IMG/VR virus record: IMGVR_UViG_3300020129_000380
Coordinates: 1 to 63,349 of that record
Reading direction: 5' to 3' (one strand)
Origin: a virus
Taxonomy: Duplodnaviria > Caudoviricetes
Length of the DNA stretch: 63,349 nucleotides
This document shows positions 40,937-60,850 of the stretch, piece after piece. The notes beneath the pieces are model-generated. The model saw nothing but the letters and a program-made list of their open reading frames with translations, was not told the origin of the DNA and ran no database searches. Both the position numbers and the translations under genes were made by a program. Each line of letters begins with the position of its first letter. Positions within the stretch are counted from its first letter, which is position 1.

Positions 40937-41015
40937 TTTCCCCACCACCGAACGAACCTGATGGCTTGATAAAGCAAGAAGCAAACCCCCAGGAATATGA
41001 GTAAATCCAACATAA

Positions 41016-41240
41016 TCATCGGCGGCACTCCCCACCAACAGCCGACAAGGGAAGGCACGACAGCCCCCCTTGCTTGCTATCAGCGTCGAGAAAGCATACC
41101 GCCTCGTAACCGCCGGGCTTGCACACTGCGTATACGCCCGTCAGCGTCACCATACGTTTGAAGCCGCCCGCCCCCATCATGCCCCAGGTGCCGAAAATGA
41201 TGACGAGCACGACAAGACTTAAGGACGCCCAAAGCTTCAT
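41016..41240 (-). CDS. Small membrane-anchored Cys-containing protein
   Basis: N-terminal TM segment; in ter operon. Confidence 0.55.
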   Translation of the reverse strand: MKLWASLSLVVLVIIFGTWGMMGAGGFKRMVTLTGVYAVCKPGGYEAVCFLDADSKQGGLSCLPLSAVGGECRR

Positions 41241-41443
41241 AAACCCGCCGATACCCGTTCTGCCCATTTAACGAGCTTCGGAGCGTACTCTGATATGGTG
41301 TTTTTGACGAATTGATCACGGGTTATAATCATAATCGTGCCGAGGGCGATAATCTCACCACGAGTAGCAAATACTGCCGCCAGAATGACGAATACGCCAA
41401 ACCAGAAGCTCATTTGCATCATTTGCTTAACTAGGTATTTCAT
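41237..41443 (-). CDS. Small membrane protein
   Basis: AGGAGG RBS; hydrophobic. Confidence 0.6.
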   Translation of the reverse strand: MKYLVKQMMQMSFWFGVFVILAAVFATRGEIIALGTIMIITRDQFVKNTISEYAPKLVKWAERVSAGL

Positions 41444-41500
41444 GGAACCTCCTTGTTTGCTGAGAAAGACGGCCCGCAGCGAACCACGGGCCGTAACCAG

Positions 41501-42085
41501 TTATGCCGCAGCCTGAAGGCCGAAACGGTTGGCAAAGCCACCCAGTTCCGATGCGTCGGCATCGCCAATAGCGATGAAGTTCCAATCGATACCATCCCGC
41601 TTCAGCTTGCCGAGAACGAACGATTCATGGCTGCTGTCGGTATCGCTGATCTTGTAATTGGCCAGCTCTTGCTGATTCTCTGCGTTGACAATGCGAATGA
41701 AGGCATTGTCGAGATCGCGAAGGCTCTGGCCTTTGGCTTTGCCCTGGTAGATTGAAGCCACGAACACGATTTCATTCACGTCCGCCGGAACAGTCGAGAG
41801 ATTGACATCAATCACCTCATCGTCGCCCTCGCCTTCGCCGGTCAAATTGTCGCCACGGCTGGCCACCGACCCGCAATCAGAAGCCTTGTGGTTGAAATAG
41901 ACGAAATTGCCCTTGTTCTTGAGCTTGCCATTCGCATCGAGCAAGAAAGCCGCCAGGTCTAAATCCATGGTGGCGCCTTGTTTCTTCATGTCCCATCCGG
42001 CACCCGCAAAGACTTTCTTCAGGCCGGGAGCCTTTTTGGTCAGCGAAACGGTTTCGCCTTTCGTCATTGATACAACGTCGGTCAT
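41501..42085 (-). CDS. terD: TerD family stress protein
   Basis: GWD...DLDLAAFLL...FVYFN...GDNLTGEGEGDDEVI...NAFIRIVN. Confidence 0.92.
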   Translation of the reverse strand: MTDVVSMTKGETVSLTKKAPGLKKVFAGAGWDMKKQGATMDLDLAAFLLDANGKLKNKGNFVYFNHKASDCGSVASRGDNLTGEGEGDDEVIDVNLSTVPADVNEIVFVASIYQGKAKGQSLRDLDNAFIRIVNAENQQELANYKISDTDSSHESFVLGKLKRDGIDWNFIAIGDADASELGGFANRFGLQAAA

Positions 42086-42567: not shown

Positions 42568-42747
42568 AAGCCCCGTGCCGAACGTGGTTGAGAAGTGGCT
42601 GGAAAGCAGGTAAAAGTCTGTAAATCCGGTGCTCGTTTGGTGTCACTTTGTTTGCCAAACCTTGCCCACCGGCGACCATCCACGCCTAGCGATGCCTAAA
42701 CGCCTAGCGGCAAAAACCCGCAAAAAAGCCTGGAAATACGGGCAATA

Positions 42748-42775
42748 TTGACATTTCGTGCCGATTTCGTAGGAT
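42748..42775 (+). promoter_or_regulatory. Promoter upstream of the tRNA fragment
   Basis: TTGACA-N16-TAGGAT ending 14 bp before the tRNA 5' end. Confidence 0.65.
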
Positions 42776-42789
42776 ATGGCGTGATCTTT

Positions 42790-42829
42790 TGGGGTATAGT
42801 GTAACGGTAGCACAACTGACTCTGACTCA
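42790..42829 (+). pseudogene. 5' half of tRNA-Gln(CTG) (att core)
   Basis: TGGGGTATAGTGTAACGGTAGCACAACTGACTCTGACTCA: acceptor 5' strand, D arm and anticodon loop CTCTGAC; no T arm follows. Confidence 0.85.
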
Positions 42830-42927
42830 TCCCCGACGCATTCAGATTCCGCAGAAAACACTGCAAAAATGAAGATGCTTGCCTAAAGATGCCTAAACGG
42901 TGTCAATTTGGTGTCTGTTTTGAAAAA

Positions 42928-44151
42928 CTACCTCTCCCGCTCCCCGTTTTTCTTGAGCCGCAGCTTTTCGGCCAGGCCCCCAAGGACTTCATCCGCCGTC
43001 CGCTTTTTCTCCGTCCCCGTGTAATACCGCATCATGACCTCCGGCGTTACGTCGAATGCCGCCGCGGCCCGTTTTGGGTTGATGTCCGCTTCAGCTGCAC
43101 GAGTGAATGCGGCCTTCCGAAAATCATGGCTGGAAAAATCCCGCCCCGTTTCCTTTTGATACGTCTGCATCGTTTGCTCGACCCAGCGATAGAGCCGACC
43201 TGGAGAGAACTCCGGATTCTGCCGATGGACGGGAAACCCCTTTGCTACATTCGCCGCGATCAATTCGGCAGGATACCTCTCCCAAAGATACGTCTCTCCC
43301 TTGTAAGACTCCAAAGCTGCATAAACATCCTCGGGAAGAATCGCATAGCGTTCTGAGCGATTCTTCGTTACGTCCGCAGGGAAGACAAGCCGCCCGTCTT
43401 GAAGTTGAACAGAGCGAAGGTTGCAAAGATCCTCAAGCCGGCAGCCGGTGAGGGCCTTGACGTCGAAAAAGAGTTGCGGCATCGCCCAGCCGGGATAACG
43501 ATTCCCCAGCCAATCGTAGAAATGTTGCACGTCATCCGAGCTTACGTATTTGACTTCGTGCCGGTCGAGCTTCGGCGCCATGACTTCCGAAAAGGGATTT
43601 TCCTTTACCAGCTTCAGATCCCGAAGCCACGAGAACACCGCCTTTAGCGTGACGACGCGGCTATGGACCGACTTCGCCTCATGTTTCTTTCCATGATGAC
43701 TCTCTGTCGCGTATTTCGTCTTGAAGCGTGCCGCCAACTCCGGCGTCACCTCGGCAGGTCCTTTCGTCGTGAACATCGCCTTGAGCTTGCCCAGCGTCTC
43801 CAGGTAGCCCTTGATCGTATTCGGACGTTTGCCGTCAGCTTCCATTTCTTCCTTCAGCCGCTCTTCCGCCTCTTCCCAGCAGACACCCTCTTGGCTTTGC
43901 ACGACAACCGGCTTCGCTTGTCCGTATGCTTCGAGAATGATTTGCTGTGCCGCGTCGATCGCCGCCGCTTTTTTTACCTGGCCGGTGCCTCGCCGTACTT
44001 GGCCTTCAGGCCCTTTAAAGCGGACATACCAATCGTTAGTACGCTCTGGACGCGAATAAAGTGCGAACCTAATCCGCCGCCCATCGGGCAATACGACATG
44101 ATTTCTTTGCCACATCTTCAACGACTTATACCTATGTGGATTGGGTGTCAA
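42928..44151 (-). CDS. int: Tyrosine integrase
   Basis: TGCRLEDL (R), TKNR (K), HDFRK (HxxR), MMRYY (Y). Confidence 0.92.
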   Translation of the reverse strand: MTPNPHRYKSLKMWQRNHVVLPDGRRIRFALYSRPERTNDWYVRFKGPEGQVRRGTGQVKKAAAIDAAQQIILEAYGQAKPVVVQSQEGVCWEEAEERLKEEMEADGKRPNTIKGYLETLGKLKAMFTTKGPAEVTPELAARFKTKYATESHHGKKHEAKSVHSRVVTLKAVFSWLRDLKLVKENPFSEVMAPKLDRHEVKYVSSDDVQHFYDWLGNRYPGWAMPQLFFDVKALTGCRLEDLCNLRSVQLQDGRLVFPADVTKNRSERYAILPEDVYAALESYKGETYLWERYPAELIAANVAKGFPVHRQNPEFSPGRLYRWVEQTMQTYQKETGRDFSSHDFRKAAFTRAAEADINPKRAAAAFDVTPEVMMRYYTGTEKKRTADEVLGGLAEKLRLKKNGERER

Positions 44152-44360
44152 CTACGGCGAGTGGAAAGATAACGGTCGAGGGCTTCCCGCGTAAACAAGA
44201 GGCGCCCCGGACGCCCAGGCATGGGGAAAATGCGACGGCGTTTCACGAGAGCATACACGGCTTGGACTGTGCACCGTAAATACGCCGCCGTCTCAATCGC
44301 AGTTAAATAGGGGCTTTCAACCCCGATACGCTCTTCCATCGGATGCCTCCAAAAGGGCAT
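44148..44360 (-). CDS. xis: Excisionase (HTH_17)
   Basis: SPYLTAIETAAYLR...LLFTREALDRYL; overlaps the integrase start. Confidence 0.85.
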   Translation of the reverse strand: MPFWRHPMEERIGVESPYLTAIETAAYLRCTVQAVYALVKRRRIFPMPGRPGRLLFTREALDRYLSTRRS

Positions 44361-44518
44361 CCATGCCCCTCCTTGCTACCGAAACAGTTTGCGGATGCCC
44401 ACCGCGATAAGCATCAACCCCAAAAGCATTTTGAGACCGTAGTTTTCAAACATCCCATCAGCGAATAACATTGGACTACCCTCCCTTTGGTGATGTAAAA
44501 GCTTCTTCTCGTTCCGGT

Positions 44519-44905
44519 TTATCGGGGCGGCGCCACAAGCTGTGTGCCATTCTGGCTTGTCCTGTCGAGCCAAATACAAATTCCCATTACCACCGCGCAG
44601 CCGCACATAACAATCCAAGGCGGCACGCCAAATTCGTTCAGAGCCAGCCCGATGCCGACGCCGGTCGCAAACCTCCCTACCAGATAGTTCCCGAAGCTCT
44701 CGTCCTTCTCCGGGTTGAGTCTTTCAAGAATCTTTCCCACCATAATCCATGTGAACAGGGCTGCCGGGATACCGGCAACGAAAGCCTCCATTACTGGTTC
44801 ACGAAGGCCGAAATAGCCGAAGATGAAACCAACACACCAGGTCACGGCGAAATACGCCGCATACGTTGCACTAATTCTCGCTGCAAGGTTCATGAGATAC
44901 TCCAA
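44519..44905 (-). CDS. Membrane protein
   Basis: About four hydrophobic segments; GGAG-containing start region. Confidence 0.55.
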   Translation of the reverse strand: MEYLMNLAARISATYAAYFAVTWCVGFIFGYFGLREPVMEAFVAGIPAALFTWIMVGKILERLNPEKDESFGNYLVGRFATGVGIGLALNEFGVPPWIVMCGCAVVMGICIWLDRTSQNGTQLVAPPR

Positions 44906-45031
44906 ACAAGGGTTACTTTTTCGTCACTGAGGCAAACAATGCACTCAGCAACATCAAACACACTATGGTCACAGAAAGACCAACAATTCCGTCGTCTGTC
45001 ATAGTACGTTCCTTAAAAGACGCTCTGGGAT

Positions 45032-45250
45032 TCACCGCTTGAAAAACAGGCTGGCGACCTTCAAGCCGCCCATCGCAGCCTTGCCCATCATCTCCCGGCG
45101 TTTGGCGCCTTCTTCAGCCTCTTGGGCTTTCAGCCGTTGGTAGGCTTCAGGTTCTTTCAAGAGCAGGTAAAGGGGAAACACCACCTTGACCGCCACGATG
45201 ACCAAAATAATCAAAATCACAAGTCCCGCTTCCATCGCTCTATCCCTCAA
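45032..45250 (-). CDS. Small membrane protein
   Basis: N-terminal TM segment; in IME operon. Confidence 0.55.
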   Translation of the reverse strand: MRDRAMEAGLVILIILVIVAVKVVFPLYLLLKEPEAYQRLKAQEAEEGAKRREMMGKAAMGGLKVASLFFKR

Positions 45251-45302
45251 GATGCCCGAGGCCAGTTCGCCTACACAGCTAGTGACCCCGGGCGACCATG
45301 TG

Positions 45303-45617
45303 TTACATTGACATTCCGCCCCGACTCATTTCGGGCTGATCGATTTCGTGTGATTGCGAAATCTCGGGTTGTTGCACTTCGACGCTCGGCTGCCCTACTT
45401 GATGCGGATACATGACGAATCCACTTCCATTGAACAGCCCGGCGGCGATCTCCGACGCCCCGAGGGGAATCAGGTGGTCGGCTGCCTGTCCCATCCCCTC
45501 AAAAAGCGTTCCCGCGACTGTGGCGACACCGCCCAGAAACGCCCCCACACCCTCCTTGATACCCTCCGTCACAGCTTCCGTTGCCGTGATGCTCTGAAAT
45601 TCCTCTTGCGGACTCAT
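45303..45617 (-). CDS. Hypothetical IME protein
   Basis: ATGA overlap with T4CP; GASEIAAGLFNG motif; SRGGMSM C-terminus resembles T4SS-substrate tails. Confidence 0.6.
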   Translation of the reverse strand: MSPQEEFQSITATEAVTEGIKEGVGAFLGGVATVAGTLFEGMGQAADHLIPLGASEIAAGLFNGSGFVMYPHQVGQPSVEVQQPEISQSHEIDQPEMSRGGMSM

Positions 45618-47317
45618 CGAAACCCTCCCTTCATGAAATGCGTGGCCATGGCAGTGCCTACGAGGCACAAAAACACCGTGCCAAGCATCAACAGAAACGA
45701 CCCAAACATATGCGACTTTTGCCCTTTGAGCAGCCATTTGTCGCTGTAGTATTTCACGAGCTTAACTTTTATCGGCCGCGTCGAGGGGCAGAACACTATG
45801 GCCTCATCCGCCGGCGTTTGCAGCACTTCGTCAGCGGTTGCCAGCTCCCTCTTATGCTGAGTAAGTGTCTCAGACTTATTCTTGCCCCAGTTCATCCCCC
45901 AGCTCACATCCCTGCCATTTGACGATGAGCTTCCCGAGCTACGGCCATTCTGCCACGACTCACATAAAACCGTAGCGGAGCCTAGGCGCTTGCTTATATA
46001 TTCCGCCGTGCCGTTGTTTTTCTCGATTCCCATCGAGTTCACGCCGAAGAAAATCTGCGTCACGTTCGACATAAACGTTTCTTCCTGGCCAGGGAAACAT
46101 TTAGCCACCTGATTCACGCTCTGAAAAAACCAGTGGCAACGCACACCGTAACCTGCACCTTTATCAAGAGCCTCATCCACCACATCCATATGGCCGAGCT
46201 TCGCCGCCTCATCGAAGATGAAGTGCGTTTTACGCCTCTCCTGAAGCCCCCCTCTCATCGCCGCCTTTAACATCACACCTATGACCATCCTCACCCACGG
46301 CTCCAGCACTTTGGAATGCTCTAACGACGGCACAATGTAGACCGTCATGGGTTTTGACAGGGGAACGAACGAACTCGTCCGGGAGTTTTCGGCGATTCTC
46401 TCAGAGTCCAAAAACCGCATAAACCTCGCCGTCGTCGTTAATGTCGAGCCCTTTTCCTCCCCCATGAAAAAAGACAATTGATTGCCCATTCTCTGCAACA
46501 TTCCTCCGGATCGTTTCATTACCTCGATGGCGATTTTTAGCTTTTCCGGGCTGGTGAGTATGTCCTGCACGGCCTGTAGGTTCCTGTGACTCTGGTCAGC
46601 GTGAGTCATGGTGGTCGCGATAATGGCCGATATGAACATCTCCGCCGTATCCTTGAAATGGCCGGAATTTCCGTCTTCTTTTTCCTCCCGGATGACAAAG
46701 CTTTTCGCCAGATCCTTGGCGTCATCGAGTTCCTTTGCGAAGCTCAATGGGTTTAACGTCGCCGATTCAAAGGGAATCTTGCCGTGTAGTGTCCTATGGG
46801 GGTCGATAACATGCACCTCACCGAACCGGCGCCGGTAGGCCGCTGTAAGGAGGGCGAGTTCGCCCTTGTAATCAATCACCACTTGCGAATCCGGGCAGGT
46901 CAAAAGATGAGGCAATATGATCGACACACCCTTCCCCGACCGGGTTGGCGCACACGTACAGGTGTGAATCGCCTTGGTTAACCGTACAACCAGCTTGTCC
47001 TTGTTAAACGCGGCGATGGCCTCCCTGTTGGGAATACTCATATCCAAAAGCCCCAGCACCGCCGATTTGCGGGGAGCATGGGGGAGCGCTCCCACAATCA
47101 ACCCTTCCCTTGCGTTAATCATCCCCCGCAAATCCTTCCGCTCCGCCCACCTCGCTGTCCCATGTTTCCACCAGTTGGCCTTTGGTTTCACCAGGGCGAC
47201 TATCCCCGCCAGCACGAAGATAAGCGACCATGGCAACCCCACCACACCGGCGATGGTCACGAGGTAAATCATGCCCAAAACGTAAACCTGAAGCATCTTT
47301 CGTGAAATCCAGAACAT
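45614..47317 (-). CDS. Type IV coupling protein (VirD4/TraG family)
   Basis: N-terminal TMs, HGTARWA, Walker A APTRSGKG, IDYKGEL, Walker B FIFDEAAKLG. Confidence 0.92.
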   Translation of the reverse strand: MFWISRKMLQVYVLGMIYLVTIAGVVGLPWSLIFVLAGIVALVKPKANWWKHGTARWAERKDLRGMINAREGLIVGALPHAPRKSAVLGLLDMSIPNREAIAAFNKDKLVVRLTKAIHTCTCAPTRSGKGVSIILPHLLTCPDSQVVIDYKGELALLTAAYRRRFGEVHVIDPHRTLHGKIPFESATLNPLSFAKELDDAKDLAKSFVIREEKEDGNSGHFKDTAEMFISAIIATTMTHADQSHRNLQAVQDILTSPEKLKIAIEVMKRSGGMLQRMGNQLSFFMGEEKGSTLTTTARFMRFLDSERIAENSRTSSFVPLSKPMTVYIVPSLEHSKVLEPWVRMVIGVMLKAAMRGGLQERRKTHFIFDEAAKLGHMDVVDEALDKGAGYGVRCHWFFQSVNQVAKCFPGQEETFMSNVTQIFFGVNSMGIEKNNGTAEYISKRLGSATVLCESWQNGRSSGSSSSNGRDVSWGMNWGKNKSETLTQHKRELATADEVLQTPADEAIVFCPSTRPIKVKLVKYYSDKWLLKGQKSHMFGSFLLMLGTVFLCLVGTAMATHFMKGGFR

Positions 47318-47502
47318 CAGTTCCTCCCCGGATCAAGCCGTGAATCACCCCGTCCTCGTTTGGTTTCGTAACACTCCAAACCCGCTTTGATAATTTCGTA
47401 GAGCCGTAAGAACGCCTCTCTATAGTCCCCCTCGGGATCGGTCACGACCATCACATTATGCGTTAACACGAAGGCGCAATCGTGCAACAAGGACTGGCTC
47501 AT
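47317..47502 (-). CDS. Hypothetical IME protein
   Basis: MSQSLLHDCAF...; couples ParB-like gene to T4CP. Confidence 0.6.
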   Translation of the reverse strand: MSQSLLHDCAFVLTHNVMVVTDPEGDYREAFLRLYEIIKAGLECYETKRGRGDSRLDPGRN

Positions 47503-48278
47503 GGCGTGGCCTCCAGCTTCTTCTTTTGATCCGACACAAATTGCTTGATGTCCTTTTTCCCAACGTCCCGCCGCCACGACTTGATGAGTTTTTCGAGCAG
47601 ATCCAGCCCGATGACCATATCCAGCTCCTCGGCGGAGATCGTCACCGTCCCGCCGGGAAGGGGGATGGACGCACGTTTGCACTTCGATTCGGTGAAGCCG
47701 TTGCGGGCAGCCCGACCCTTGGTAACGATGTCATCCCGCGTCGCACCGTTCAGGGCAGCGAGGAGCATGTCATGTTGCTTCTGGGCGTCCACCTTGCTGA
47801 TTTCGTTCCACATCGAGATGCCGATTCGACCAGCCGCCGCCGCGTCCTTTACGGCATCGATGGTGTCCTTAAGGCTAAAAATCTTGGAAATCATGCTGGC
47901 GTCATAGCCCGTGCGGATAGCCAAATCCTTGGCCGTGCCATTCGGGTTCTCCTCGAACCATTTGTCAATCCGCATGAACTGGTCGATGGGGGAAAGCGTT
48001 GCTTTGTGCCAGCTTGTGATTAAATGCACCTCGCTTGCGGACAGCGGTTCGTCCGTTAAGATGCCGAACAGCTTTTCCGGCTTCCCATTCTTTCGGGCAA
48101 TACGCAGCCGCCGGCCACCGTCCTTCACCACGCCCGACATATCGGCCAAAAGAGGCTCCAATTGCCCCCTCGCCAAGCTCACGCCGAGCCGTTGCTCATC
48201 CTCCGGGTTCTCGAACAACCGCACGTTGTTCGGATCTTCTTTCCAAAACGACAGGCATTCTTCGACGAATTTACGCAT
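47499..48278 (-). CDS. ParB-like protein (divergent)
   Basis: DPNNVR...GQLEPLL...DGGRRLRIA box, followed by an HTH (AKDLAIRTGYDASMISKI). Confidence 0.75.
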   Translation of the reverse strand: MRKFVEECLSFWKEDPNNVRLFENPEDEQRLGVSLARGQLEPLLADMSGVVKDGGRRLRIARKNGKPEKLFGILTDEPLSASEVHLITSWHKATLSPIDQFMRIDKWFEENPNGTAKDLAIRTGYDASMISKIFSLKDTIDAVKDAAAAGRIGISMWNEISKVDAQKQHDMLLAALNGATRDDIVTKGRAARNGFTESKCKRASIPLPGGTVTISAEELDMVIGLDLLEKLIKSWRRDVGKKDIKQFVSDQKKKLEATP

Positions 48279-48608
48279 GGACGTACCTTTCACGATGCGG
48301 GCGCACGATGGACGTGACCCTAGACAAAGGGAAAAAGACTTCGGTTAATTCAGGGAACTTTTAGCCGAGCAGGAAATGGCGCACGGGGATTCTCCTTTGA
48401 CGTTGCACACGTCATACAAAAGAACGCTAGGACACTTGGAGAGCTGTACTTGGTAGACTTCTCAATCGTATACCGCTCATCAGAGCAAAGATAAAAAACG
48501 ATTTTTTTTTTCGTTTTTTCTTCCGATCTGTACATCCGTTCTACCCCGCTACTTGACATCCGCCTGAATTTGTGACTTAGCTTCCCTAAACCACAACGGG
48601 AGGGCAAA

Positions 48609-49091
48609 ATGGCATCACGCCGCAAGACTCAAGAGGAACCGCAAACACTTCAGGAAGCAGTGACCGAGCAGGCCGCGACCGCGACGGAGCCGCAAACGTT
48701 TCAAGAAGCCTTGAAAAAAGAAGGCAAGGAGCTTGAGAAAAAGAAGTCCTACACCCTCCTTGAAGGCCGTGCCCACGACAACCCGACCGGCGTGGAAATC
48801 GACAAATACGCCAGCACCGAAAACGGTCATTTTGAATGGCGGATGTACTTCCGCGACGGCGATCCCGGCCCGCAGGTCAGGGCATACTTACGCCAAAACG
48901 GCATGGATTTTGATAAGTTCGGAGAACGCGAAGCCAGCAACCATTATCAGGCAACAAAGCCTTGGTTCAAGCCGGTCCCGTATCGGGCGGAAGGCGCCTA
49001 CGATGATGCCCAACGCATCTATTACGCTGTCGTGCAGATGATGAAGCGGGAAAAAGGGCTGGAAGTGGACGATTCCAAAGGCCGCTTCTAA
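48609..49091 (+). CDS. Hypothetical protein
   Basis: GGAGGG RBS; 160 aa. Confidence 0.6.
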   Translation: MASRRKTQEEPQTLQEAVTEQAATATEPQTFQEALKKEGKELEKKKSYTLLEGRAHDNPTGVEIDKYASTENGHFEWRMYFRDGDPGPQVRAYLRQNGMDFDKFGEREASNHYQATKPWFKPVPYRAEGAYDDAQRIYYAVVQMMKREKGLEVDDSKGRF

Positions 49092-49131
49092 AAGGCTCCG
49101 CCCACCCTTTGCGGGCAGAACGGAGCCTAAA

Positions 49132-49794
49132 TCACTTCCAGCATACGCGACACGTCGCACAGGTCACGCCGCGAGCCTTTCCTTCCGGAGTATCGGTAGG
49201 GCAAACTTTCCCCACGACATCGAGCGGGATACGTTCCTTTCGCAGGGGATTGTCGAGAAAGACCAAATCGGCCTGCTCTACATCTTCCCATGCTTCGGTT
49301 TGCATCCACGCCACTCTCGCTCCGTCCGGAACCTCGTCGGGATAACCCGTTTCTGCGTCCGCCGACAGCCACAACTTCATATTGGGCATTAAGCTGATGG
49401 CTTTCAGTATCGGAAAGATGGTCTTCACACGCCAGCTTCGGGTATACGCCCAAAACATCGTGTGTGACGACCTACCGATAACCTCCAGCATCTTGCGGGC
49501 ATACGCCGGGCTGAATACATCCCCAGAAATATGCCACCGCATTAACAGGATTCCCATACGATACAACTCGTCGGTCATCCTATCCGCGAAATCGCCTCGC
49601 TTTGCCTGCTCGTAATTCCAACGTAACCGTTCCTTCACTTGTCGAAACAAGAAGCGTCTTTTACGGGCATAGCATCGCCTCAGACATAGCTGACTTTTGC
49701 CGGGGCAGGTGATTCCTGCCTCAAGATCGAAATGGGCAACTGATGGACTCAGTTTTTCATTCCCCATTACAATCAGACTTCGTACACATTTCAT
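49132..49794 (-). CDS. GP88-like Cys-rich protein (radical-SAM-related)
   Basis: GNEKL...TCPG...C...CYA, RWHISGD, WAYTRSW, C-terminal CATCRVCW. Confidence 0.7.
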   Translation of the reverse strand: MKCVRSLIVMGNEKLSPSVAHFDLEAGITCPGKSQLCLRRCYARKRRFLFRQVKERLRWNYEQAKRGDFADRMTDELYRMGILLMRWHISGDVFSPAYARKMLEVIGRSSHTMFWAYTRSWRVKTIFPILKAISLMPNMKLWLSADAETGYPDEVPDGARVAWMQTEAWEDVEQADLVFLDNPLRKERIPLDVVGKVCPTDTPEGKARGVTCATCRVCWK

Positions 49795-49936
49795 CCATCA
49801 CCCCTTTACGAAATGAAGACCCGAAATGCCTAGTTTCACGAATGAAACAAGTAACGCGTGGATGATGAATGAGAACGCTTGAACGCGCAAGCAAATACTT
49901 CTTGCAATGACTTGTGACTTGTACTAACGTCCGCTT

Positions 49937-50188
49937 ATGAGCGAATTGGTCAAACAAATCATCAAAGATACAGGCCTTTCCCAAAAGGATGCCGCCGCCG
50001 AGCTTGGCATAAGTGCAGCGTATTTATGCGATGTGTTGAATGGGCGCCGCCAAATAAGCATCGACCTCGCCTTGAGATTGGAAAAAGCATTCGATGCGGA
50101 CGCCGAGGGCTTGCTATACGGCCAACTCGTTGACCAGATGCGGGCACACAGGAAGAAGGGTAAATGGCAACGGGAGGTAACAAAATGA
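49937..50188 (+). CDS. HigA-like XRE HTH regulator
   Basis: LSQKDAAAELGISAAYLCDVLNGRRQISIDLALRLEKAF. Confidence 0.8.
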   Translation: MSELVKQIIKDTGLSQKDAAAELGISAAYLCDVLNGRRQISIDLALRLEKAFDADAEGLLYGQLVDQMRAHRKKGKWQREVTK

Positions 50189-50342
50189 GCGATGACATGA
50201 ATACAGAAATGCAGGCTAGTTTTATACTATTCCTAGTAGCTATACTTGGATTTGCCTTTATACTGATTCTCCCACTTGCCCAGGTATTCGTCGGAGTTGG
50301 AATACTGCCGCCTTCCGTCTTAGACACGCTAGGTATTCCGAA

Positions 50343-50558
50343 ATGACGGAGTTAGCATTAGCAAACCAAGGTGAGGGGGGTGAGTATGGGCAATGGGCGG
50401 ATAGGCCAGCTATGACTTTGTGGGGCATGTTCACTTGTATTGGAGTAGCCGGGATCTTTGATAATGCCCCATGGAGATTCATCGCCGCCTTCCTTTTTGG
50501 GGGTGTTGTGACCGCACCGCTCTTTCAAGCATTTTGCAAAGGATTATTGGGTTTATGA
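50343..50558 (+). CDS. Small membrane protein
   Basis: Hydrophobic; ATGA-type overlaps. Confidence 0.45.
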   Translation: MTELALANQGEGGEYGQWADRPAMTLWGMFTCIGVAGIFDNAPWRFIAAFLFGGVVTAPLFQAFCKGLLGL

Positions 50559-50899
50559 CCACAACCACCATCTCCCACCCCACCCTCTCAGAACGCATAG
50601 AGCACGTCAAAAAGCTTGATGCGACCAGGATGCCAGGACAATTGGTCGCGGCGTTTGGCGAGGATGAAAGCATTGTGTGTTTAAGGCATTCTCCACCCTT
50701 TGAAGTCATTGCCAAGTGCAACCATTTAAACCACCCCGCCGATGCCCGCTTCCTTGCCCAAGCCCCCGCCATGATGGAAATCATAACGGAATTGACGCAG
50801 AGGCTGGAGGTGGCTCGGCAAGGCGTGTGGCCGCCACGAGGCGAATGTTATAACGCCGCGGATTTGGCCAAGCCCTTCTCCCCTTCGGAGTCAGCATGA
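50555..50899 (+). CDS. Ead/Ea22-like phage protein
   Basis: ADARFLAQAPAMM...LTQRLE motif. Confidence 0.55.
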   Translation: MTTTTISHPTLSERIEHVKKLDATRMPGQLVAAFGEDESIVCLRHSPPFEVIAKCNHLNHPADARFLAQAPAMMEIITELTQRLEVARQGVWPPRGECYNAADLAKPFSPSESA

Positions 50900-51093
50900 C
50901 CCCCTTCAGCATATTTGATGTCCAAAAGCCGCCCTTCGACTTCTGGCTGTCCATTGCCCCCAACGGAGGAGTTGCCGTATTATCGGAAACGCTTGCTAAA
51001 CGCCTGGCGAATGTTGATTCTGGAGTATTCGCCCGGCGGCTCTCTTGGGATGGCCAGAAACTCGTTGATAGCACTCCAGATGAGGCACCCTAA
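50896..51093 (+). CDS. Hypothetical protein
   Basis: ATGA overlap. Confidence 0.45.
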   Translation: MTPFSIFDVQKPPFDFWLSIAPNGGVAVLSETLAKRLANVDSGVFARRLSWDGQKLVDSTPDEAP

Positions 51094-51548
51094 TCCTTCA
51101 ATGCCTTCGGCGTGACATCGACGATCTCCACTTCCGTAAACACGACGCCTTTCTCCGCCGCCTTCATTGCGTCGTTGGCGAAGTCTCGCGTCACCTCCCG
51201 AATGTAGGGCCACCGCTTGAGCGTGCAATAATCGTACGCCCGCCATAACATCTCGCCGTAGCCCTTCACCCGCAATTCCCAATGCTTCGCCCCCGTGAAG
51301 GGAATCATGAACCCATTGCCGTAGAAGGCACTCTTCACATCGAGGTGAATGTTCTGAAGCGTCTCAATCGAGCCGTCCCGCTTAATCACATGCAAGCGTG
51401 GCACTTCTTTGTTAGTCGGCCGCATCGCCGTGGAATCGCCCCGCATCTCTGCGATTGAAATCGGGAATACATCCTCATCCGGCGTGGCCGACACACGCTT
51501 TCTGGCCTGGTCGTTCTCAGGCTCGGGAATCTCAGTATGACCGAACAA
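51090..51548 (-). CDS. Relaxase-associated hypothetical protein
   Basis: Overlaps the relaxase 3' end; AYDY...RWPYIRE. Confidence 0.6.
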   Translation of the reverse strand: MFGHTEIPEPENDQARKRVSATPDEDVFPISIAEMRGDSTAMRPTNKEVPRLHVIKRDGSIETLQNIHLDVKSAFYGNGFMIPFTGAKHWELRVKGYGEMLWRAYDYCTLKRWPYIREVTRDFANDAMKAAEKGVVFTEVEIVDVTPKALKD

Positions 51549-54426
51549 GCTCGCGATTTCCTCTGTGGTTGGAATGTTGCACCTCGGGTTTCATAACATC
51601 GATGTAACGTTGGTTCAATAATTTCTGCTGATGCATCATGCGGCGCCGCCGATAAAAAGCGTCCATGGGATGGATTGCGGGCTTGCGGTTCATTAGCTCC
51701 GAAGCCGATTTCTTCGAGTCGGTTTTCTGGATATGTTTGCGGAGTTCATCGGGGGAAAGGTCGGAATAAATCCTCGCCCCAAACTTGCCGCGGGAGAGCG
51801 TCACATAATCCTGGGCAGCGTTCATTGCTCCGATGGAATCACGCCCCATTGCAGCCAGAACGTAATCGGAAGTAGCCCCTTGCACGGCGTAGGACGTTGA
51901 GACGTAGGCGTGTTTCAGATGGCCGAATCGCTGCGAGACAATCCACCCATTATTAAGCTTAATGTCGCCTTCTTTGGTGAATCCGGACACGGTGTACTCA
52001 TTTCCGTTGTCGAGGCGATGCTTGTTTCCTTTACTGTCACATGCCACACCCCCGTTGGTGATTCGTATGGCTTCTCCAGCAGCGAGTCTAATCTCCTCTC
52101 GTTTGAAGACGCTAAAATGTTCAGGGCGGAGATTGCCGACTCCGCCTGCAACATCAGCGACGTTAACTCTGTCACCCGCCTTGTAAGCTCCGCTATTTCG
52201 TGTAAATTGCAGTACTTCGGTTCCATCATAGGAGTGCCTATCACCTTTTTGGGCTGGCGTGAGATGAAGCGGGATAAGCCTTTCAAACGGTCTCTCATCC
52301 TTTAGTTTCCCTTGCTCTTTGAGCTTTTCACGGATTGCATCGGTGATTGCCCCGCCAGCCTTATGCGATGGTGCAACCACGAGAACGCTGCGCCCCATAT
52401 CACCCATCCGGAGAAAATCGTCAACCAAAGCATCATAACCTTGTTCCTGTTTCACCCACCCAAGCTTCTCTAAAAGTCCATGCCCGGCGAGTATATTACC
52501 TTTAGCGATTTCTGCAACCGCTTCCTTGTATCCCTTGTGCTTTTGTCGCCAGTTCTCGGTTAATCTTCCAATCGGCAGACCAGCGAACTTGTCGAGGATT
52601 TCAAAGAGGTTTCCACGGGCAACGCTCTTGTGCTGCTTGCGGTCGCCCTGCAAAATGACCCTTGCGTTCAGTTCCTTCGCATACCCGAACACCTTGTCAA
52701 TATCGGAGATACCCGCCAGCGGGGCTTCGTCGATGTAGATGTATCCGTTGCGGGCGCCCTCGCGGAACTTGGGGTCGACGAGGAAGCGGGCGATGGTATC
52801 GGCATTTGAAAAGCCCTTCTCCCTAAGTGTCCCGCGGGAAGCTGAAGCCGATGGAGCAAGGAACACACCGGGCTTGTCGATGCCGGGGATTGTCCGTTGC
52901 ATGGTCTGGGTTTTACCCGTCCCCGCGTCGCCCTCGATCATGATTACGCGGTCGGTGGATTTATGGATGAAGTCACAAATGGCTTGCTGTTCGGCTGAAA
53001 GCGTGGCAATCTCTTTTTGGACGTTTAATCCACGCCCATGGGGGGCGGCTCCATTGGAAACTCCGATGGGAATCGCCCGGCCGGTAGCCGTCCCCCTCTC
53101 ATTTAAGCTCAGGCCGCTATGCTTATTTGAACCGCTGACGCTTTGCCCTGATTTGTCAATGCTTTCCGATGTCCGAATAACAGCTTGCTGTTCGGGGGAG
53201 AGTGTGGCAACCTTCTCGGACGGACTTAGTACACCCGCTAACGGCCGCATTGTCCCTTTCCCCTCACGGGCGAAGTCGATGATGCGGCCTTCCTCTGCAA
53301 GGACTTCGCGAGTGGTGGCTTCTCCGTTCTTGAGGAGCACGCCCTGGCGGAGAGCTTCGGGAATAATCTCCTCTGGTTTGGCCCCGCCCATGCAGCGTTC
53401 CATGGCGGTTATCTCAAGTCTCTTCTGGTCGATGACGCTATCCCGGTAAAACTCATGGCCTATTGCGAAGGAAATGCCCTTTTCAGCGGTGTTTGTCTGT
53501 TTGGGGTTCTTTCCCTTCAAGGCACCTTTAATCGTCTCTGCAAGCCCTTTCCTTTCGCTTTCCGATGCTTTGCCGTTCCAGTAGGACCGGTAATCATCAA
53601 GCGTCATGTCCTCTCGTTTATGGAGCCTGGACGTGGCACCGAGCTTATCCTTTCCTACGGCGGTCTCGACCTTCAGTTCCTTGGCCAGCTTTTCAACCTC
53701 TTGTGACCGGCGGGAATGCTTGGCCTTTAATGTCTCGGGGATGCCTTTGATGTCCCATGAGTAGTATTTGCCTTGCTTGTACGTTGTGTCGATCTGGTAG
53801 CCTAAGTTCGCCAACTTAGTTGACACACGAAGGTCAAACCTTCTATCAAACCATTTTCTCAAATCCATCAGGTTTCTGAACTGTACCGCCTGCCATTGCT
53901 TGGCTTCTTCGCACCAGGTTACGTTTGCTATAAGCCCATGAATGTGGTGGTCGGGATCTGGCATAGCATCTGACTTTGCCGGGCGCGTCTCTGCATGTTC
54001 CTCGGCGTAATAAACGATATTCCCCGTCTGCTTCTTTCCGTCCCGGCCACCTCGCATGTTCGTCACAGCCTCGGCCTGCATATCCGCCATCGTTTCCCGG
54101 AACGCTTCCCAAACAACATCAGTAATCCTCTTATCGTCCCCCTCCATTGCAAGGCTCACGCCCTTAGGAAGGGACGCGGTGATATGCCAGCCGGGGATTC
54201 TTCCGTCGATAAGCTGGGCGGTGAGCTGGTCATTGGTATGAGGATCGCGGCCATTCAACAGCCGAAGGAACTTCTCAAAGTCCGGTTCTGCCAACCCAAG
54301 CCTCTTTGCTCCCTCACCCCCTATCTCGCGATGCAAATCTTCGTTTTGGACGAAATAACCCCCGTCACTCTTTCCCAGGTAGGTACTGAGAGAGCCGACA
54401 TCGGTAATGACTTGAATCCGCCACAT
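51532..54426 (-). CDS. MobF (TrwC/TraI-like) relaxase-helicase
   Basis: N-terminal Tyr, LLNGRDP, TASLPKGVS, HxxTRP...PDPDHHIH (HUH), HSRRSQEV; helicase GDAGTGKT, IDEA, GDRKQHKSV, HAYVSTSYAVQGAT, YVTLSRG. Confidence 0.93.
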   Translation of the reverse strand: MWRIQVITDVGSLSTYLGKSDGGYFVQNEDLHREIGGEGAKRLGLAEPDFEKFLRLLNGRDPHTNDQLTAQLIDGRIPGWHITASLPKGVSLAMEGDDKRITDVVWEAFRETMADMQAEAVTNMRGGRDGKKQTGNIVYYAEEHAETRPAKSDAMPDPDHHIHGLIANVTWCEEAKQWQAVQFRNLMDLRKWFDRRFDLRVSTKLANLGYQIDTTYKQGKYYSWDIKGIPETLKAKHSRRSQEVEKLAKELKVETAVGKDKLGATSRLHKREDMTLDDYRSYWNGKASESERKGLAETIKGALKGKNPKQTNTAEKGISFAIGHEFYRDSVIDQKRLEITAMERCMGGAKPEEIIPEALRQGVLLKNGEATTREVLAEEGRIIDFAREGKGTMRPLAGVLSPSEKVATLSPEQQAVIRTSESIDKSGQSVSGSNKHSGLSLNERGTATGRAIPIGVSNGAAPHGRGLNVQKEIATLSAEQQAICDFIHKSTDRVIMIEGDAGTGKTQTMQRTIPGIDKPGVFLAPSASASRGTLREKGFSNADTIARFLVDPKFREGARNGYIYIDEAPLAGISDIDKVFGYAKELNARVILQGDRKQHKSVARGNLFEILDKFAGLPIGRLTENWRQKHKGYKEAVAEIAKGNILAGHGLLEKLGWVKQEQGYDALVDDFLRMGDMGRSVLVVAPSHKAGGAITDAIREKLKEQGKLKDERPFERLIPLHLTPAQKGDRHSYDGTEVLQFTRNSGAYKAGDRVNVADVAGGVGNLRPEHFSVFKREEIRLAAGEAIRITNGGVACDSKGNKHRLDNGNEYTVSGFTKEGDIKLNNGWIVSQRFGHLKHAYVSTSYAVQGATSDYVLAAMGRDSIGAMNAAQDYVTLSRGKFGARIYSDLSPDELRKHIQKTDSKKSASELMNRKPAIHPMDAFYRRRRMMHQQKLLNQRYIDVMKPEVQHSNHRGNRELVRSY

Positions 54427-54504
54427 GACACATTATTGCCATCGCTGATTTGCTAAGACAAGCTTTTGCCTTGCGTTTTTTGTGGATTGTGGCAGGATTC
54501 TTTC

Positions 54505-54630
54505 ATGAAGCTTGCGATTGCGTTACTCACCGTTGCCCTAGTCACTGGCTGTACCCATTGCAGCCATCACATCAATAGCAAGGGCGACGTAGAATGCCTC
54601 TGTCTAAGCTGCGGTGAAGGAGACTGGTGA
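54505..54630 (+). CDS. Small Cys/His-rich lipoprotein
   Basis: Translated by hand: MKLAIALLTVALVTGCTHCSHHINSKGDVECLCLSCGEGDW; lipobox VTGC. Confidence 0.55.
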   Translation: MKLAIALLTVALVTGCTHCSHHINSKGDVECLCLSCGEGDW

Positions 54631-55007: not shown

Positions 55008-55502
55008 TTAAACGTGTTTCCACATTTGTCGCGAAATTACCCTTGAGATCGTCGTTGGGCTGCATCCATATTGCACGGCCATCAGATCCTGCGATACTTC
55101 CGCAGCCTTCGCCCTGATCTCCAACACCTTCCTCTCATTCAACTTTGCCTTGCCATGTCGGCTGCCACGATTGCTTAGACCCAGCATCACGGCATGTTGA
55201 CTGTTCTCAAGGTTAGTGAGGTATTCGAGATTACTCGCCCAATTCAATCCCTTTCGGCCATTGCGGTGATTGATCGTAAGCCCTAATGGACGCGGCCCGA
55301 TGAAAGCAAACGCCACAAGTGCGTGAACAAGGTGATGTTTTTGCTGATTACGACTATTCAGACAGACACGCTCGTACCCGCAATTCTTATAGGTACGCAT
55401 CGGCTTTCGTCGTTTTATTGATTCGACACGTCCGGTATTCGATACGGCATAAAGGTGTTCATAGCCCACAACGGGCTTCCAATATTCAAGCAATAGTGGC
55501 AT
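55008..55502 (-). CDS. NUMOD4-HNH homing endonuclease
   Basis: WKPVVGYE..YAVSNTGRV (NUMOD4); VHALVAFAFIG...INHRNG...NLEY (HNH). Confidence 0.88.
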   Translation of the reverse strand: MPLLLEYWKPVVGYEHLYAVSNTGRVESIKRRKPMRTYKNCGYERVCLNSRNQQKHHLVHALVAFAFIGPRPLGLTINHRNGRKGLNWASNLEYLTNLENSQHAVMLGLSNRGSRHGKAKLNERKVLEIRAKAAEVSQDLMAVQYGCSPTTISRVISRQMWKHV

Positions 55503-55708
55503 ACTCGACTCCTCATCTTTGACAATGAGGAGATTACCCCGTTTCGTGCTTCGGCGCAAGCGGGGTTTTCTTTTGGCGATACCGTTCCGGCCGGTTCCCC
55601 TACGGGTTCGCGTCGCTCCGTGCTTCGCACCGGCCAAGAGGCCGCCTACGGTCAACCTATCGCAAGAAAGTGTTTGACCGGTCCTTCGAGTCGTGCCACC
55701 TTTTCGGC

Positions 55709-60849: not shown

Positions 60850-60850
60850 G

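Follow-up and report, generated by a model that had tools for sequence, protein, structure and literature searches.

The 63,349-nt record IMGVR_UViG_3300020129_000380, analysed over its full length (hereafter the window), appears from its gene content to be a temperate siphovirus in its circular, non-integrated state, the host of which is probably a planctomycete. The integration end of this phage corresponds to a predicted IME-type backbone, comprising attP, integrase, excisionase, a ParB-like gene, a VirD4/TraG-type coupling protein (T4CP), a GP88-family protein and a relaxase-helicase. Our preferred reading, to which we assign a probability of about 0.5, is that the whole 63 kb acts as one integrating and excising unit, and that the phage can be mobilised by conjugation via a channel encoded elsewhere. 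The preliminary description of this DNA had reached a similar view. Its observations are confirmed and its interpretation is partly supported: the structural part is upheld, while mobilisation through a borrowed T4SS stays a prediction. The word 'hybrid' is a fair one, because the same backbone exists as an IME free of phage genes.

In IMG/VR, the record is classed as 100% complete, with direct terminal repeats. Its first 127 bases recur unchanged as its last 127, so that the assembly can be closed into a 63,222-bp circle, as expected for the single circular molecule proposed earlier. Composition is uniform, with a tetranucleotide correlation of r = 0.917 between the mobilisation module and the rest of the window. 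Head, tail, lysis and replication modules of a siphovirus, all claimed previously, were each recovered by Pfam or PHROGs matches (Table 1). The portal (PF04860, 247.8 bits) and HK97-type capsid (PF05065, 219.2 bits) are readily recognised; the Terminase_6C/3/6N matches of TerL are weak, and this protein is 69–70% identical to copies in Zavarzinella C3 and C16, G002 C229 and G157. PHROGs identified the head morphogenesis protein, maturation protease, head-tail adaptor, tail terminator, tape measure, distal tail protein and endolysin. The tail parts include a Phage-tail_3 protein, and none of the scanned proteins was recognised as a tail sheath. Reading frames are open in all of the head, tail and lysis genes, which are arranged colinearly with those of relatives. 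The structural operon contains a 6-kb insert (21602–27912) that is not conserved in relatives; the only large unexplained ORF of the window (24431–27673, 1080 aa) is likewise absent from them.

Table 1 Features of the 63,349-nt window, in order of position.
Feature	Positions	Strand	Basis
Terminal overlap	1..127 = 63223-63349	.	Exact 127-bp identity of both ends
Early/replication block	4083..7856	mixed	Exonuclease and DUF1376 initiator; phrog_10477, phrog_9327, PF07120 cover both genes
Exonuclease	4083-4769	-	Within early/replication block
DUF1376 primosomal-type initiator	7056-7856	+	Within early/replication block
Packaging and head genes (TerL, portal, head morphogenesis protein, protease, major capsid protein)	11984..17721	+	Pfam, PHROGs
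Connector and tail genes (adaptor, tail terminator, tape measure, distal tail protein, tail protein, fibre)	20543..36842	+	Colinear with relatives
Tape measure	30457-32130	+	PHROGs
Tail protein	33685-35865	+	Within connector/tail block
Mtd_N fibre	35847-36842	+	Mtd_N match
Endolysin	37435..37875	+	phrog_6523, phrog_15351, phrog_465
Cargo adjoining attP (TerC-family DUF475 membrane protein, TerD)	40025..42085	-	PF04332 337.3 bits, PF02342 204.1 bits
attP	42627..42920	+	Repeat families D3 and D4, host tRNA-Gln alignment, unique core
Tyrosine integrase	42928..44151	-	PF00589 34 bits, phrog_1
Excisionase-like HTH protein	44148..44360	-	PF12728 HTH_17 42 bits, phrog_66 excisionase
T4CP, VirD4/TraG type	45614..47317	-	PF02534 173.7 bits, TraG-D_C, TrwB_AAD_bind
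Putative ParB-like protein, upstream of T4CP gene	47499..48293	-	Protein-atlas look-up
GP88-family protein, module-conserved	49132..49794	-	PF17338 123.7 bits
152-aa accessory gene directly after relaxase gene	51090..51548	-	Position, homologs
MobF relaxase with C-terminal SF1B helicase	51532..54426	-	PF08751 161.6 bits, AAA_30 110.2 bits
NUMOD4/HNH endonuclease, upstream of relaxase gene	55008..55655	-	PF07463, PF13392
Two DNA methyltransferases (56644-58008, 58294-59133)	56644..59133	+	MTS/N6_Mtase; PF00145 171 bits
Two dissimilar tRNA-Arg(CCG) genes	60773..60997	-	ARAGORN and sequence

The attP core is the 5' half of a tRNA-Gln(CTG), located at about 42789–42826 by alignment to host tRNA-Gln(CTG) genes and preceded by a promoter-like TTGACA-N17-TAGGAT. 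ARAGORN did not call a tRNA-Gln in the window, its only calls being the two tRNA-Arg genes. The earlier report of a single att-like site with arm repeats on both sides is borne out: the 24-nt tRNA-Gln core occurs once in the window at up to 3 mismatches (expected 0), the arm-type 12-mer GATGCCTAAACG flanks the core at 42691 and 42888, and a repeat search of the window revealed no direct repeat of ≥20 nt bracketing the mobilisation genes. Homologs of the integrase (54–63% identity) adjoin tRNA-Gln(ctg) or tRNA-Lys, and an excisionase gene accompanies the integrase in G006, G118, G142 and G037. The idea that integrated copies would lie between tRNA-Gln attL and attR was right in kind; neither an integrated copy of this exact phage nor the exact attB was found when looked for. 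A six-frame search of the record gave one PF00589 match and no PF00239 resolvase, leaving the integrase as the only recombinase found and agreeing with the previously proposed pairing of an excisionase with a sole integrase.

The relaxase scores 116.8 against the NCBIfam MobF model NF041492 (cut-off 100), and its open reading frame contains the N-terminal Tyr, the H..HxH triad and Walker A/B, matching the intact relaxase-helicase described before. The catalytic Tyr, His triad and Walker motifs are retained in every relaxase copy compared. Relaxase dN/dS among three Zavarzinella prophage copies was 0.21–0.26, compared to 0.11–0.16 for the portal and 0.23–0.33 for the capsid. Hence, the relaxase is under purifying selection, with a dN/dS similar to that of the capsid gene, as are the structural genes, and the neutral decay named beforehand as contrary evidence was not seen for this gene. 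Four phage-linked relaxases form an exclusive clade (support 99/99).

The reading frames of the integrase, excisionase and ParB-like protein are likewise open, as is that of the T4CP, with Walker A/B and a hydrophobic N-terminus that are conserved with the prophage copies, as anticipated for the coupling protein; its matches to TraG/VirD4 NCBIfam models each fall below the equivalog cut-off. The putative ParB-like identity, also part of the preliminary description, comes from the protein-atlas look-up (features 0.98; structure TM 0.63–0.67 to ParB_N/HTH_ParB clusters; GGRRLRIA patch), Pfam, PHROGs and NCBIfam having given no match. Zavarzinella C3, Zavarzinella C4 and G157 have homologs of this gene adjoining that of the T4CP, and GP88 homologs (38–68% identity) lie between the T4CP and relaxase genes in relatives. 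The 152-aa accessory protein has no family match, a feature shared by many module genes; its homologs (30–48% identity) occupy the position immediately after the relaxase gene in 8 of 19 genome-contig loci and in Zavarzinella C3. Homologs of the NUMOD4/HNH endonuclease are found near the relaxase gene in L022, Zavarzinella C16, G002 C273 and G157, while those of the methyltransferases lie upstream of it in Zavarzinella C3. No oriT/nic site was found: the DNA upstream of the relaxase gene has no outstanding hairpin, and comparison with relatives gave no shared non-coding block. As stated earlier for VirB/MPF genes, a six-frame search of the record gave no match to VirB4 (TIGR00929).

The view that phage and integrase/T4CP/relaxase genes form one unit is supported by its recurrence in all eight relatives with enough flanking DNA (Zavarzinella C3, C8a, C8b, C16 and C1, G002 C273 and C229, and IMG/VR G157), five of which are prophages in the isolate Zavarzinella formosa. 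All eight share the layout T4CP (where found), GP88, relaxase, early genes, TerL, portal, capsid and tail, with the MobF relaxase in divergent orientation 12–33 kb upstream of TerL or portal. A T4CP homolog was found in four (C3, C8a, C1 and G157); it was not found in G002 C273, nor in Zavarzinella C8b and C16, where the regions contain about 10 kb of N. The Zavarzinella C8a prophage spans 63.0 kb between exactly two copies of a 33-bp tRNA-Met repeat. Between these attL/attR repeats lie the integrase, T4CP and relaxase genes as well as the full set of virion genes, with no third att copy, as proposed for the entire 63 kb of the window. To the question raised earlier, whether phages sharing the TerL and capsid also carry MobF and T4CP, the close relatives answer yes for MobF, and a T4CP was found in half of them; the mobilisation module is missing from more distant phage relatives (28 of 29 IMG/VR records, plus G155). 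Our literature search found no paper describing such prophages.

The integrase-excisionase-T4CP-relaxase backbone also occurs without phage genes in a 55-kb IME (G006:C24), which is bounded by a 43-bp repeat equal to the 5' half of a tRNA and thus follows the same att logic as the window. A further planctomycete element encodes a relaxase of the same family together with a T4CP, a VirB4-like ATPase, TrbL and TrbI; therefore, helper channels for this relaxase family occur. Within a sample of 151 genomes of the Zavarzinella family, TrwC was found in 55 (up to 14 copies per genome) and any VirB4 in about 5; strong matches were seen in 3 genomes plus one fragment, and the divergent VirB4 in 2. Three different queries gave no VirB4 match in Zavarzinella itself. 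This scarcity may be a detection artefact, because MAGs often lose plasmids and just 6 first-look candidates per genome were scored for the strong matches.

According to the preferred reading of mobilisation through an external channel, the relaxase would nick a predicted oriT after excision and remain bound to the 5' end. The membrane-anchored T4CP would then pass the relaxase-DNA complex to the mating channel encoded elsewhere. In the recipient, the integrase would insert the element into tRNA-Gln, with the phage-borne promoter and 5' tRNA half restoring the gene. Relaxases of integrative conjugative elements drive rolling-circle replication, and this relaxase could possibly also drive that of the excised circle.

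It is conceivable, if unlikely, that the relaxase-helicase and perhaps the T4CP serve the phage life cycle only, the relaxase acting, for example, as a nickase-helicase that starts unidirectional rolling-circle replication of the excised genome, with DNA leaving the cell only in virions. HUH nickases initiate rolling-circle replication in many phages and plasmids. Furthermore, the GC skew has a single sign in 30 of 31 2-kb segments of the window, regardless of gene strand; this fits one-directional, strand-asymmetric replication, and the pattern is absent in integrated relatives and in 16 relaxase-less relatives. Scarce helper VirB4 in the host family, and a relaxase kept in all eight relatives when the T4CP was found in four, point the same way. 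However, a T4CP has no known replication role, and the one here is nonetheless intact and membrane-anchored, with copies retained in 5 genomes at 30–35% identity; moreover, the phage already encodes a DUF1376 primosomal-type initiator. The same relaxase/T4CP pair is also found in the phage-free IME and beside VirB4, TrbL and TrbI, and nearly all of the distant phages lack the module. Contact transfer without a classical helper, in which relaxase and T4CP would deliver DNA to an unrecognised channel, either specific to planctomycetes or encoded by the phage, would account for the excess of TrwC over VirB4 in the family, for the 8 TrwC loci of VirB4-negative Zavarzinella and for the many module genes lacking a family match. 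We regard this as improbable: no candidate channel genes emerged, large ATPases lacking an explanation are absent from the window, its sole large unexplained ORF is not shared with relatives, and the VirB4 deficit may be artefactual.

The remaining alternatives concern the unit itself. The non-conserved insert in the structural operon, and an internal stop in one Zavarzinella portal copy, could indicate that the phage-derived unit has lost the ability to make infectious virions and, as a defective prophage or a particle-forming element, now moves mainly as an IME. This is likewise improbable, given the open, colinear and selectively constrained virion genes and the assembly of the record as a closed circle separate from a chromosome. 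Accretion, with a separate IME lying next to a separate phage and the two excising jointly as in published phage-ICE tandems, is conceivable from the free-standing IME backbone and has a slim chance. It is at odds with the single integrase, the lack of a resolvase, the single-copy att core free of bracketing repeats, the two repeat copies around C8a and a junction order identical in eight relatives at 26–70% protein identity. Finally, the source of the record is a metagenome assembly, and its 127-bp overlap could have been produced by the assembler; a chimeric assembly joining a phage to an unrelated mobilisable element is nevertheless very unlikely, because all eight relatives share the layout, which is found in an isolate genome and three other sources. 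Tetranucleotide usage and GC skew are also uniform.

TrwC/TrwB of plasmid R388 is the MOBF prototype. The element resembles it in encoding a protein with an N-terminal TrwC relaxase domain and a helicase at the C-terminus, alongside a coupling ATPase of the VirD4 family; it differs in its phage context, in that no trwA-like gene or oriT was recognised, and in that the best named relatives, about 50% identical, are all planctomycete. IMEs with their own relaxase and coupling protein and no mating-pair system are a known class in the available text of PMC5704250. The element shares with them an integrase, excisionase, tRNA target, MobF relaxase, T4CP and lack of VirB4, but adds a complete head, tail, packaging and lysis gene set, and its mobilisation is predicted from genes. 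Phage-ICE tandems (Huang et al., Sci Adv 2026, PMC13651849) similarly combine prophage and conjugation functions in one unit, which exits the chromosome under phage-type integrase control. In the portion of that paper available, they consist of two elements that accreted at att sites, with the ICE supplying the full conjugation machine, and their authors do not consider them hybrids; by contrast, the present element has one integrase, one att, no internal att and no MPF, in a combination conserved across diverged relatives.

Like the phage-plasmids P1, N15 and SSU5, the element carries virion and plasmid-type genes, including a ParB-like gene, on one replicon. For phage-plasmids, the accessible text reports that oriTs were not found and that mechanisms other than conjugation are relied on (Pfeifer et al. 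2021, PMC7969092; Ares-Arroyo et al. 2022, PMC10123127). Unlike these, the element is integrative, since an integrase and attP are present, and the protein scan revealed neither a plasmid replication gene nor one for ParA. The 'conjugative prophage' Phi1207.3 of Streptococcus pyogenes is described as having an unknown mechanism, and the word relaxase is absent from the paper as available (PMC4260502); here, relaxase and T4CP are explicit and transfer is predicted from genes alone. Chromosomal planctomycete loci pairing MOBF and T4CP belong to the same phylum and relaxase class. The available part of the preprint on these (bioRxiv 10.1101/2024.01.22.576637) counts 29 MOBF relaxases in 21 chromosomes, often with T4CP and none with complete MPF, and gives conjugation within the phylum as not reported. 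It draws no prophage link, whereas at least 5 of the 8 Zavarzinella TrwC loci lie inside tailed prophages.

With a relaxase and a coupling ATPase encoded in the window and its closest relatives, we infer that these phages may use two routes, spreading by cell contact as well as in virus particles.

Bases 1-127 of the window are repeated exactly as its last 127 bases, so that the sequence forms a closed circle of 63,222 bp. IMG/VR assigns direct terminal repeats and 100% completeness to the 63,349-base record, and GC content lies between 0.50 and 0.59 throughout. A full phage gene set is encoded, comprising TerL, portal, protease, HK97-type capsid, connectors, tape measure, tail tip and endolysin, as expected for the siphovirus morphotype. 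No tail sheath was found among the window proteins scanned, and neither a holin nor a major tail protein was recognised by family. Virion production and a lytic cycle with standard packaging would be predicted from these gene families, the closed circular record rated 100% complete being the sole indirect sign of infectious particles. The N-terminal domain of the tail fibre is Mtd_N (major tropism determinant), as in phages with diversity-generating retroelements.

The mobilisation block occupies the minus strand. Domain scores, catalytic residues and helicase motifs place its relaxase in the MOBF (TrwC/TraI-type) class, and nicking activity is predicted. Residues Y16, H144, H161 and H163, which we take to be the catalytic tyrosine and the metal-binding histidine triad, are invariant across 25 homologs and kept in every phage-linked copy, while the C-terminal SF1B helicase contains GDAGTGKT (Walker A), DE and GDxxQ motifs. 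The coupling protein (T4CP) has the T4SS-DNA_transf domain, Walker A/B motifs and hydrophobic N-terminal anchor of VirD4/TraG proteins, with every match to the NCBIfam TraG/VirD4 equivalogs falling under its cut-off. Six-frame searches of the window record yielded a single integrase match, no resolvase and no match to VirB4 (TIGR00929). Homologs of the VirB4-like, TrbL-like and TrbI-like proteins encoded by planctomycete contig G078:C107 were likewise not found in the record. The window thus combines integrase, excisionase and attP with a relaxase and T4CP in the absence of mating-pair formation genes, as expected of an integrative mobilisable element (IME). The preliminary description, which reported a full phage with a MobF relaxase, T4CP, sole integrase, single att-like site and no VirB genes, is borne out. 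A short-range inverted-repeat scan for oriT across 54300-56700 gave two weak pairs only, and a blastn comparison of the 2.3-kb stretches preceding the relaxase genes in 8 elements revealed no block in common with the window except a doubtful 35-nt match.

Features of the window, with position or strand and the family match or gene group
Feature	Position or strand	Match, group or context
TerL	11984-13189	head/packaging group
Portal		PF04860, 247.8 bits
Head-morphogenesis protein, maturation protease		head/packaging group
HK97-type capsid		PF05065, 219.2 bits
Head-tail adaptor, tail terminator, tape-measure protein, distal tail protein		connector/tail group
Phage-tail_3 protein, Mtd_N fibre	fibre, 35847-36842	connector/tail group
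Non-conserved insert	18252-27912	within structural operon
Wzy_C/O-antigen-ligase-like membrane protein	18785-19924	in insert
GDSL-lipase-domain protein	21602-22954	in insert
371-aa protein with internal repeats; 1080-aa protein without family		in insert
Endolysin		present
TerC-family (DUF475) and TerD genes	40025-42085	between lysis genes and attP
5' half of tRNA-Gln(CTG), reaching anticodon loop	42789-42826	alignment to host tRNA-Gln genes
Mobilisation block	42.9-54.4 kb, minus	
Tyrosine integrase, HTH_17 excisionase	minus	mobilisation block
VirD4/TraG coupling protein	minus	PF02534, 173.7 bits; also PF12696, PF10412
ParB-like protein	minus	atlas look-up only
GP88-family protein	minus	mobilisation block
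MobF relaxase-helicase, 964 residues	minus	PF08751, 161.6 bits (cut-off 25); AAA_30, 110.2 bits; NCBIfam MobF NF041492, 116.8 (cut-off 100)
DUF1376 primosomal-type initiator, exonuclease, two DNA methylases		early genes
Two tRNA-Arg(CCG)	60773-60997	72 bp apart

The att core is present as a single copy in the window, with arm-type repeats on either side and a TTGACA-N17-TAGGAT sequence ahead of it. No direct repeats of at least 20 nt surround the mobilisation genes. ARAGORN detected no tRNA-Gln in the window and only the two tRNA-Arg(CCG) genes, which are so different in sequence that they represent neither a duplication nor an att scar. When the 36-nt core was used to search for attB, 3 of 401 planctomycete genomes matched, each with two mismatches, and neither an exact site nor a site pair was found. 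Integrases 54-63% identical to that of the window lie beside tRNA-Gln(ctg) in two genomes and near tRNA-Lys in two others. Judging by their families, the integrase and excisionase would integrate and excise the unit at tRNA-Gln.

Integrated copies with attL and attR enclosing the structural genes had been anticipated, and a relative of the window, prophage C8a of the Zavarzinella formosa isolate, is integrated in this manner. Its ends carry a 33-bp repeat in two copies (C8:654-686 and 63654-63686), and the 63.0 kb between them contains the integrase beside attL, followed by the T4CP, GP88 and relaxase genes and all virion genes. The repeat corresponds to the 3' end of tRNA-Met, and not to the tRNA-Gln of the original proposal; a third copy was not found with up to 6 substitutions allowed. 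In the C3 prophage of the same isolate, the integrase adjoins a tRNA-Ser gene at the T4CP end, and the far side contains no repeat of the tRNA-Ser region of at least 14 nt, leaving the left end undefined. The integrases of the relatives are dissimilar to one another, yet are invariably located at the T4CP end. The single integrase and att core, the lack of bracketing repeats or an internal att and, for C8a, the presence of two rather than three repeat copies in the integrated form speak against a tandem of two elements of the phage-ICE type. A second att site bounding only the IME genes, named in the preliminary description as evidence against a single unit, was not found.

Relaxase homologs are nearly all from Planctomycetota, as are 17 of the 19 relaxase loci in genome contigs. 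In Z. formosa DSM 19928 (G001), each of the five strong portal homologs lies 12-33 kb from a MobF relaxase, the two being divergently oriented as they are in the window. A tblastn comparison using all window proteins gave one gene order for these five prophages (C3, C8a, C8b, C16 and C1): T4CP, GP88, relaxase, early genes, TerL, portal, capsid and tail. The same order is seen in two lake MAG contigs (G002 C273 and C229) and in an 85.6-kb IMG/VR provirus (G157), with protein identities between window and relatives ranging from 26% to 70%. The layout is therefore kept in 8/8 relatives with enough flanking DNA, a count that leaves out G064:C72 and G072:C7, as these contigs stop just past the portal gene. 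T4CP homologs were found in four of the eight (C3, C8a, C1 and G157); C273 yielded none, C229 ends too early to judge, and the C8b and C16 regions include ~10 kb of N. Given that the isolate and the other relatives share this architecture (eight of eight testable cases), an assembly chimera of a phage and a mobilisable element, which the preliminary description had wished to see excluded, is very unlikely. A separate early suggestion of taxonomic discordance between the modules did not hold, both being closest to the same Zavarzinella prophages. Neither 42683-54630 nor 11984-33000 had a megablast match in the INPHARED phage collection. Searching IMG/VR with the relaxase as a single protein, a full-length alignment or an N-terminal alignment recovered no relative among the matches listed; there was one 28% helicase-only match, and the full-length alignment caught Walker-A patterns.

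Three further Zavarzinella relaxase loci are found at G001:C4:700000-810000 (loci L057-L063). A T4CP and a ParB-like gene accompany two of these, and the nearby sequence contains no homologs of the head or tail genes of the window. An endolysin homolog is present at 752.9-753.3 kb, so that one of these loci may be a prophage built on another structural module.

A full-length relaxase frame of 931-1128 codons is present in five of the eight relatives, with scaffold Ns inside the C16 copy; the C8b frame is broken by a 150-N scaffold gap, and the C229 copy is split over two frames. The N-terminal tyrosines, the H..HxH triad and the Walker A, Walker B and GDxxQ motifs are conserved throughout. Among three closely related Zavarzinella prophages the relaxase dN/dS is 0.21-0.26, alongside 0.11-0.16 for the portal, 0.23-0.33 for the capsid and 0.13-0.30 for a tail protein. 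The T4CPs retain Walker A/B and the hydrophobic N-terminus despite only 30-35% identity. Both relaxase and T4CP are kept over the long term; the relaxase dN/dS values and the conserved motifs indicate retention instead of the neutral decay that the preliminary description had set against its own reading. In a relaxase tree of 17 rows, four of the phage-linked copies group to the exclusion of all others (99/99) and the window groups with a MAG locus and Zavarzinella C3 (96/96), the IME and conjugative copies being on the other side. The tree leaves out the partial ORFs (zC8b, g2C229 and the zC4c halves) as well as L005, L006, L008, L012, L013, L015, L017-L020, L022 and L023.

The distribution of the module is narrow. 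A TerL alignment search of IMG/VR recovered 122 relatives, of which 80 were kept. Among those in records of at least 30 kb with TerL 55-70% identical, 1/29 contains a TrwC (MobF relaxase) domain, or 1/10 when at least 90% complete. The preliminary description had asked whether TerL-sharing phages also carry MobF; the closest record, G157, does, and the other 28 of 29 do not. TrwC and T4CP are both absent from a complete 45.3-kb phage whose capsid is 41% identical. The IMG/VR provirus G158 (TerL 69% identical, 30 kb, 46% complete) gave no TrwC match, and that provirus record therefore lacks a relaxase gene. The portal type of the window occurs in 3/151 genomes of the Zavarzinella family sample. 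With TrwC restricted to the single closest record, the module marks a sub-lineage, a pattern that fits a one-time fusion that was afterwards kept.

The window also carries genes outside this shared layout. At the position of the insert in the structural operon, relatives differ: the 21178 gene is followed directly by the 27909/28181 genes; within the insert, the 24-26 kb region has a GC content of 0.59 and a GC skew of opposite sign. The TerC-family/TerD pair looks like stress or tellurite-resistance cargo, as judged by family. At 56462-56680, an ATG near 56474 is preceded by GGAGA, and a short separate gene may precede the plus-strand methylase (listed from 56644); the minus-strand ORF 56151-56462 may not be real as listed.

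A phage-free counterpart was found in G006:C24:39045-94258 (loci L088-L091), a 55-kb IME bounded by a 43-bp repeat corresponding to the 5' half of tRNA-Lys(ctt) through the anticodon loop, with the integrase and the complete tRNA at opposite ends. The att site of the window, whose core is likewise the 5' half of a tRNA, is predicted to work in this way. Its integrase and excisionase share 60% and 62% identity with those of the window, and the element also encodes a T4CP-like protein, relaxase, RepA_C, a methylase-helicase giant, an Mrr-like nuclease and defence-type genes. No phage structural families were found among its ten largest ORFs. Hence, the integrase-excisionase-T4CP-relaxase backbone exists as a true IME, and the term phage-IME hybrid fits the window well.

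The established function of a relaxase-T4CP pair is to nick at an oriT and pass the DNA, with its bound relaxase, into a type IV secretion channel. As the window lacks channel genes, mobilisation by a helper element is the standard reading, and such transfer would be plausible. The negative oriT scans and an apparent rarity of helpers count against it. Within the Zavarzinella family sample, TrwC is found in 55/151 genomes (up to 14 matches per genome), compared to strong VirB4 matches in 3/151 plus one fragment (TIGR00929, P-loop-only matches not being counted) and divergent VirB4 in 2/151, a scarcity weakened by MAG incompleteness and by the few candidates scored per genome. This imbalance (55 vs ~5 of 151) far exceeds what we would expect from other phyla. 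Zavarzinella itself has no VirB4 match as opposed to 8 TrwC loci; PF03135, a narrow model that matched 1/14 controls, gave nothing in 5 genomes. The 56.9-kb contig G078:C107 (loci L099-L101) encodes a MobF relaxase of the window's family, a T4CP, TrbL-like and TrbI-like proteins and a 915-aa divergent VirB4-like ATPase, and is a candidate planctomycete conjugative element. The ATPase matches P-loop_TraG only (27 bits), is missed by PF03135 and barely registers with TIGR00929.

The main rival to helper mobilisation is a role of the relaxase in rolling-circle replication of the element itself. The plus strand of the window has C>G in 30/31 windows of 2 kb and in every one of twelve 5-kb windows (-0.04 to -0.15), even though genes switch strand at 40-56 kb, and the skew is about zero in integrated relatives and in 16 relaxase-less TerL relatives. 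A skew of single sign suggests that the free form replicates in one direction and asymmetrically between the strands, as this rival would have it. However, an intact and membrane-anchored T4CP is hard to account for by replication alone, and the two roles are not exclusive and can coexist. The 55-to-5 imbalance and the genome-wide skew of the free form also keep alive a further, unlikely reading, in which the relaxase and T4CP of this lineage, and planctomycete MobF/T4CP loci generally, are independent of a VirB4-type channel and use an unrecognised or phage-linked export route. On this reading, either contact-dependent transfer would need nothing beyond the phage itself, or relaxase-primed single-strand replication would be a core phage function. 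The structural reading, in which phage and mobilisation genes form one unit, is supported and extends to a conserved lineage.

Among known systems, the closest kind is the IME with its own relaxase and T4CP. The authors of work on phage-ICE tandems stress, in the accessible part of their account, that these are accretions and not hybrids. Phage-plasmids, in the portion of that literature available, are said to use mechanisms other than conjugation, oriTs not having been found. The window has a ParB-like protein but no ParA or Rep family among the proteins scanned, and integration is favoured by its integrase and attP and by the relatives found in integrated form. The paper on the 'conjugative prophage' Phi1207.3 does not mention a relaxase, whereas the window carries one. 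A search of open papers, with subscription journals and supplements outside its scope, revealed none in which a tailed phage is described as encoding both a relaxase and a T4CP. According to the available text of a planctomycete plasmidome preprint, 29 MOBF relaxases occur in 21 chromosomes, often with a T4CP, with no complete MPF in chromosomes; the same text states that there is no report of planctomycetes conjugating with one another. Its gene content would make the window both a temperate tailed phage and an IME.

Gene transfer by phages and by conjugative or mobilisable elements is regarded as following two separate routes, the former limited by receptors and capsid size and the latter by cell contact. 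If the present reading is true, conserved tailed phages with a relaxase and T4CP under selection would represent one element open to both routes. Prophage host range and spread would then be predicted differently, and the classification of such regions by current tools would be affected, as illustrated by the G158 provirus record without a relaxase gene. The cultured, non-pathogenic Z. formosa DSM 19928 bears five such prophages, making the question amenable to bench work, and the lineage gives a concrete context to the unexplained MOBF and T4CP loci of Planctomycetes.
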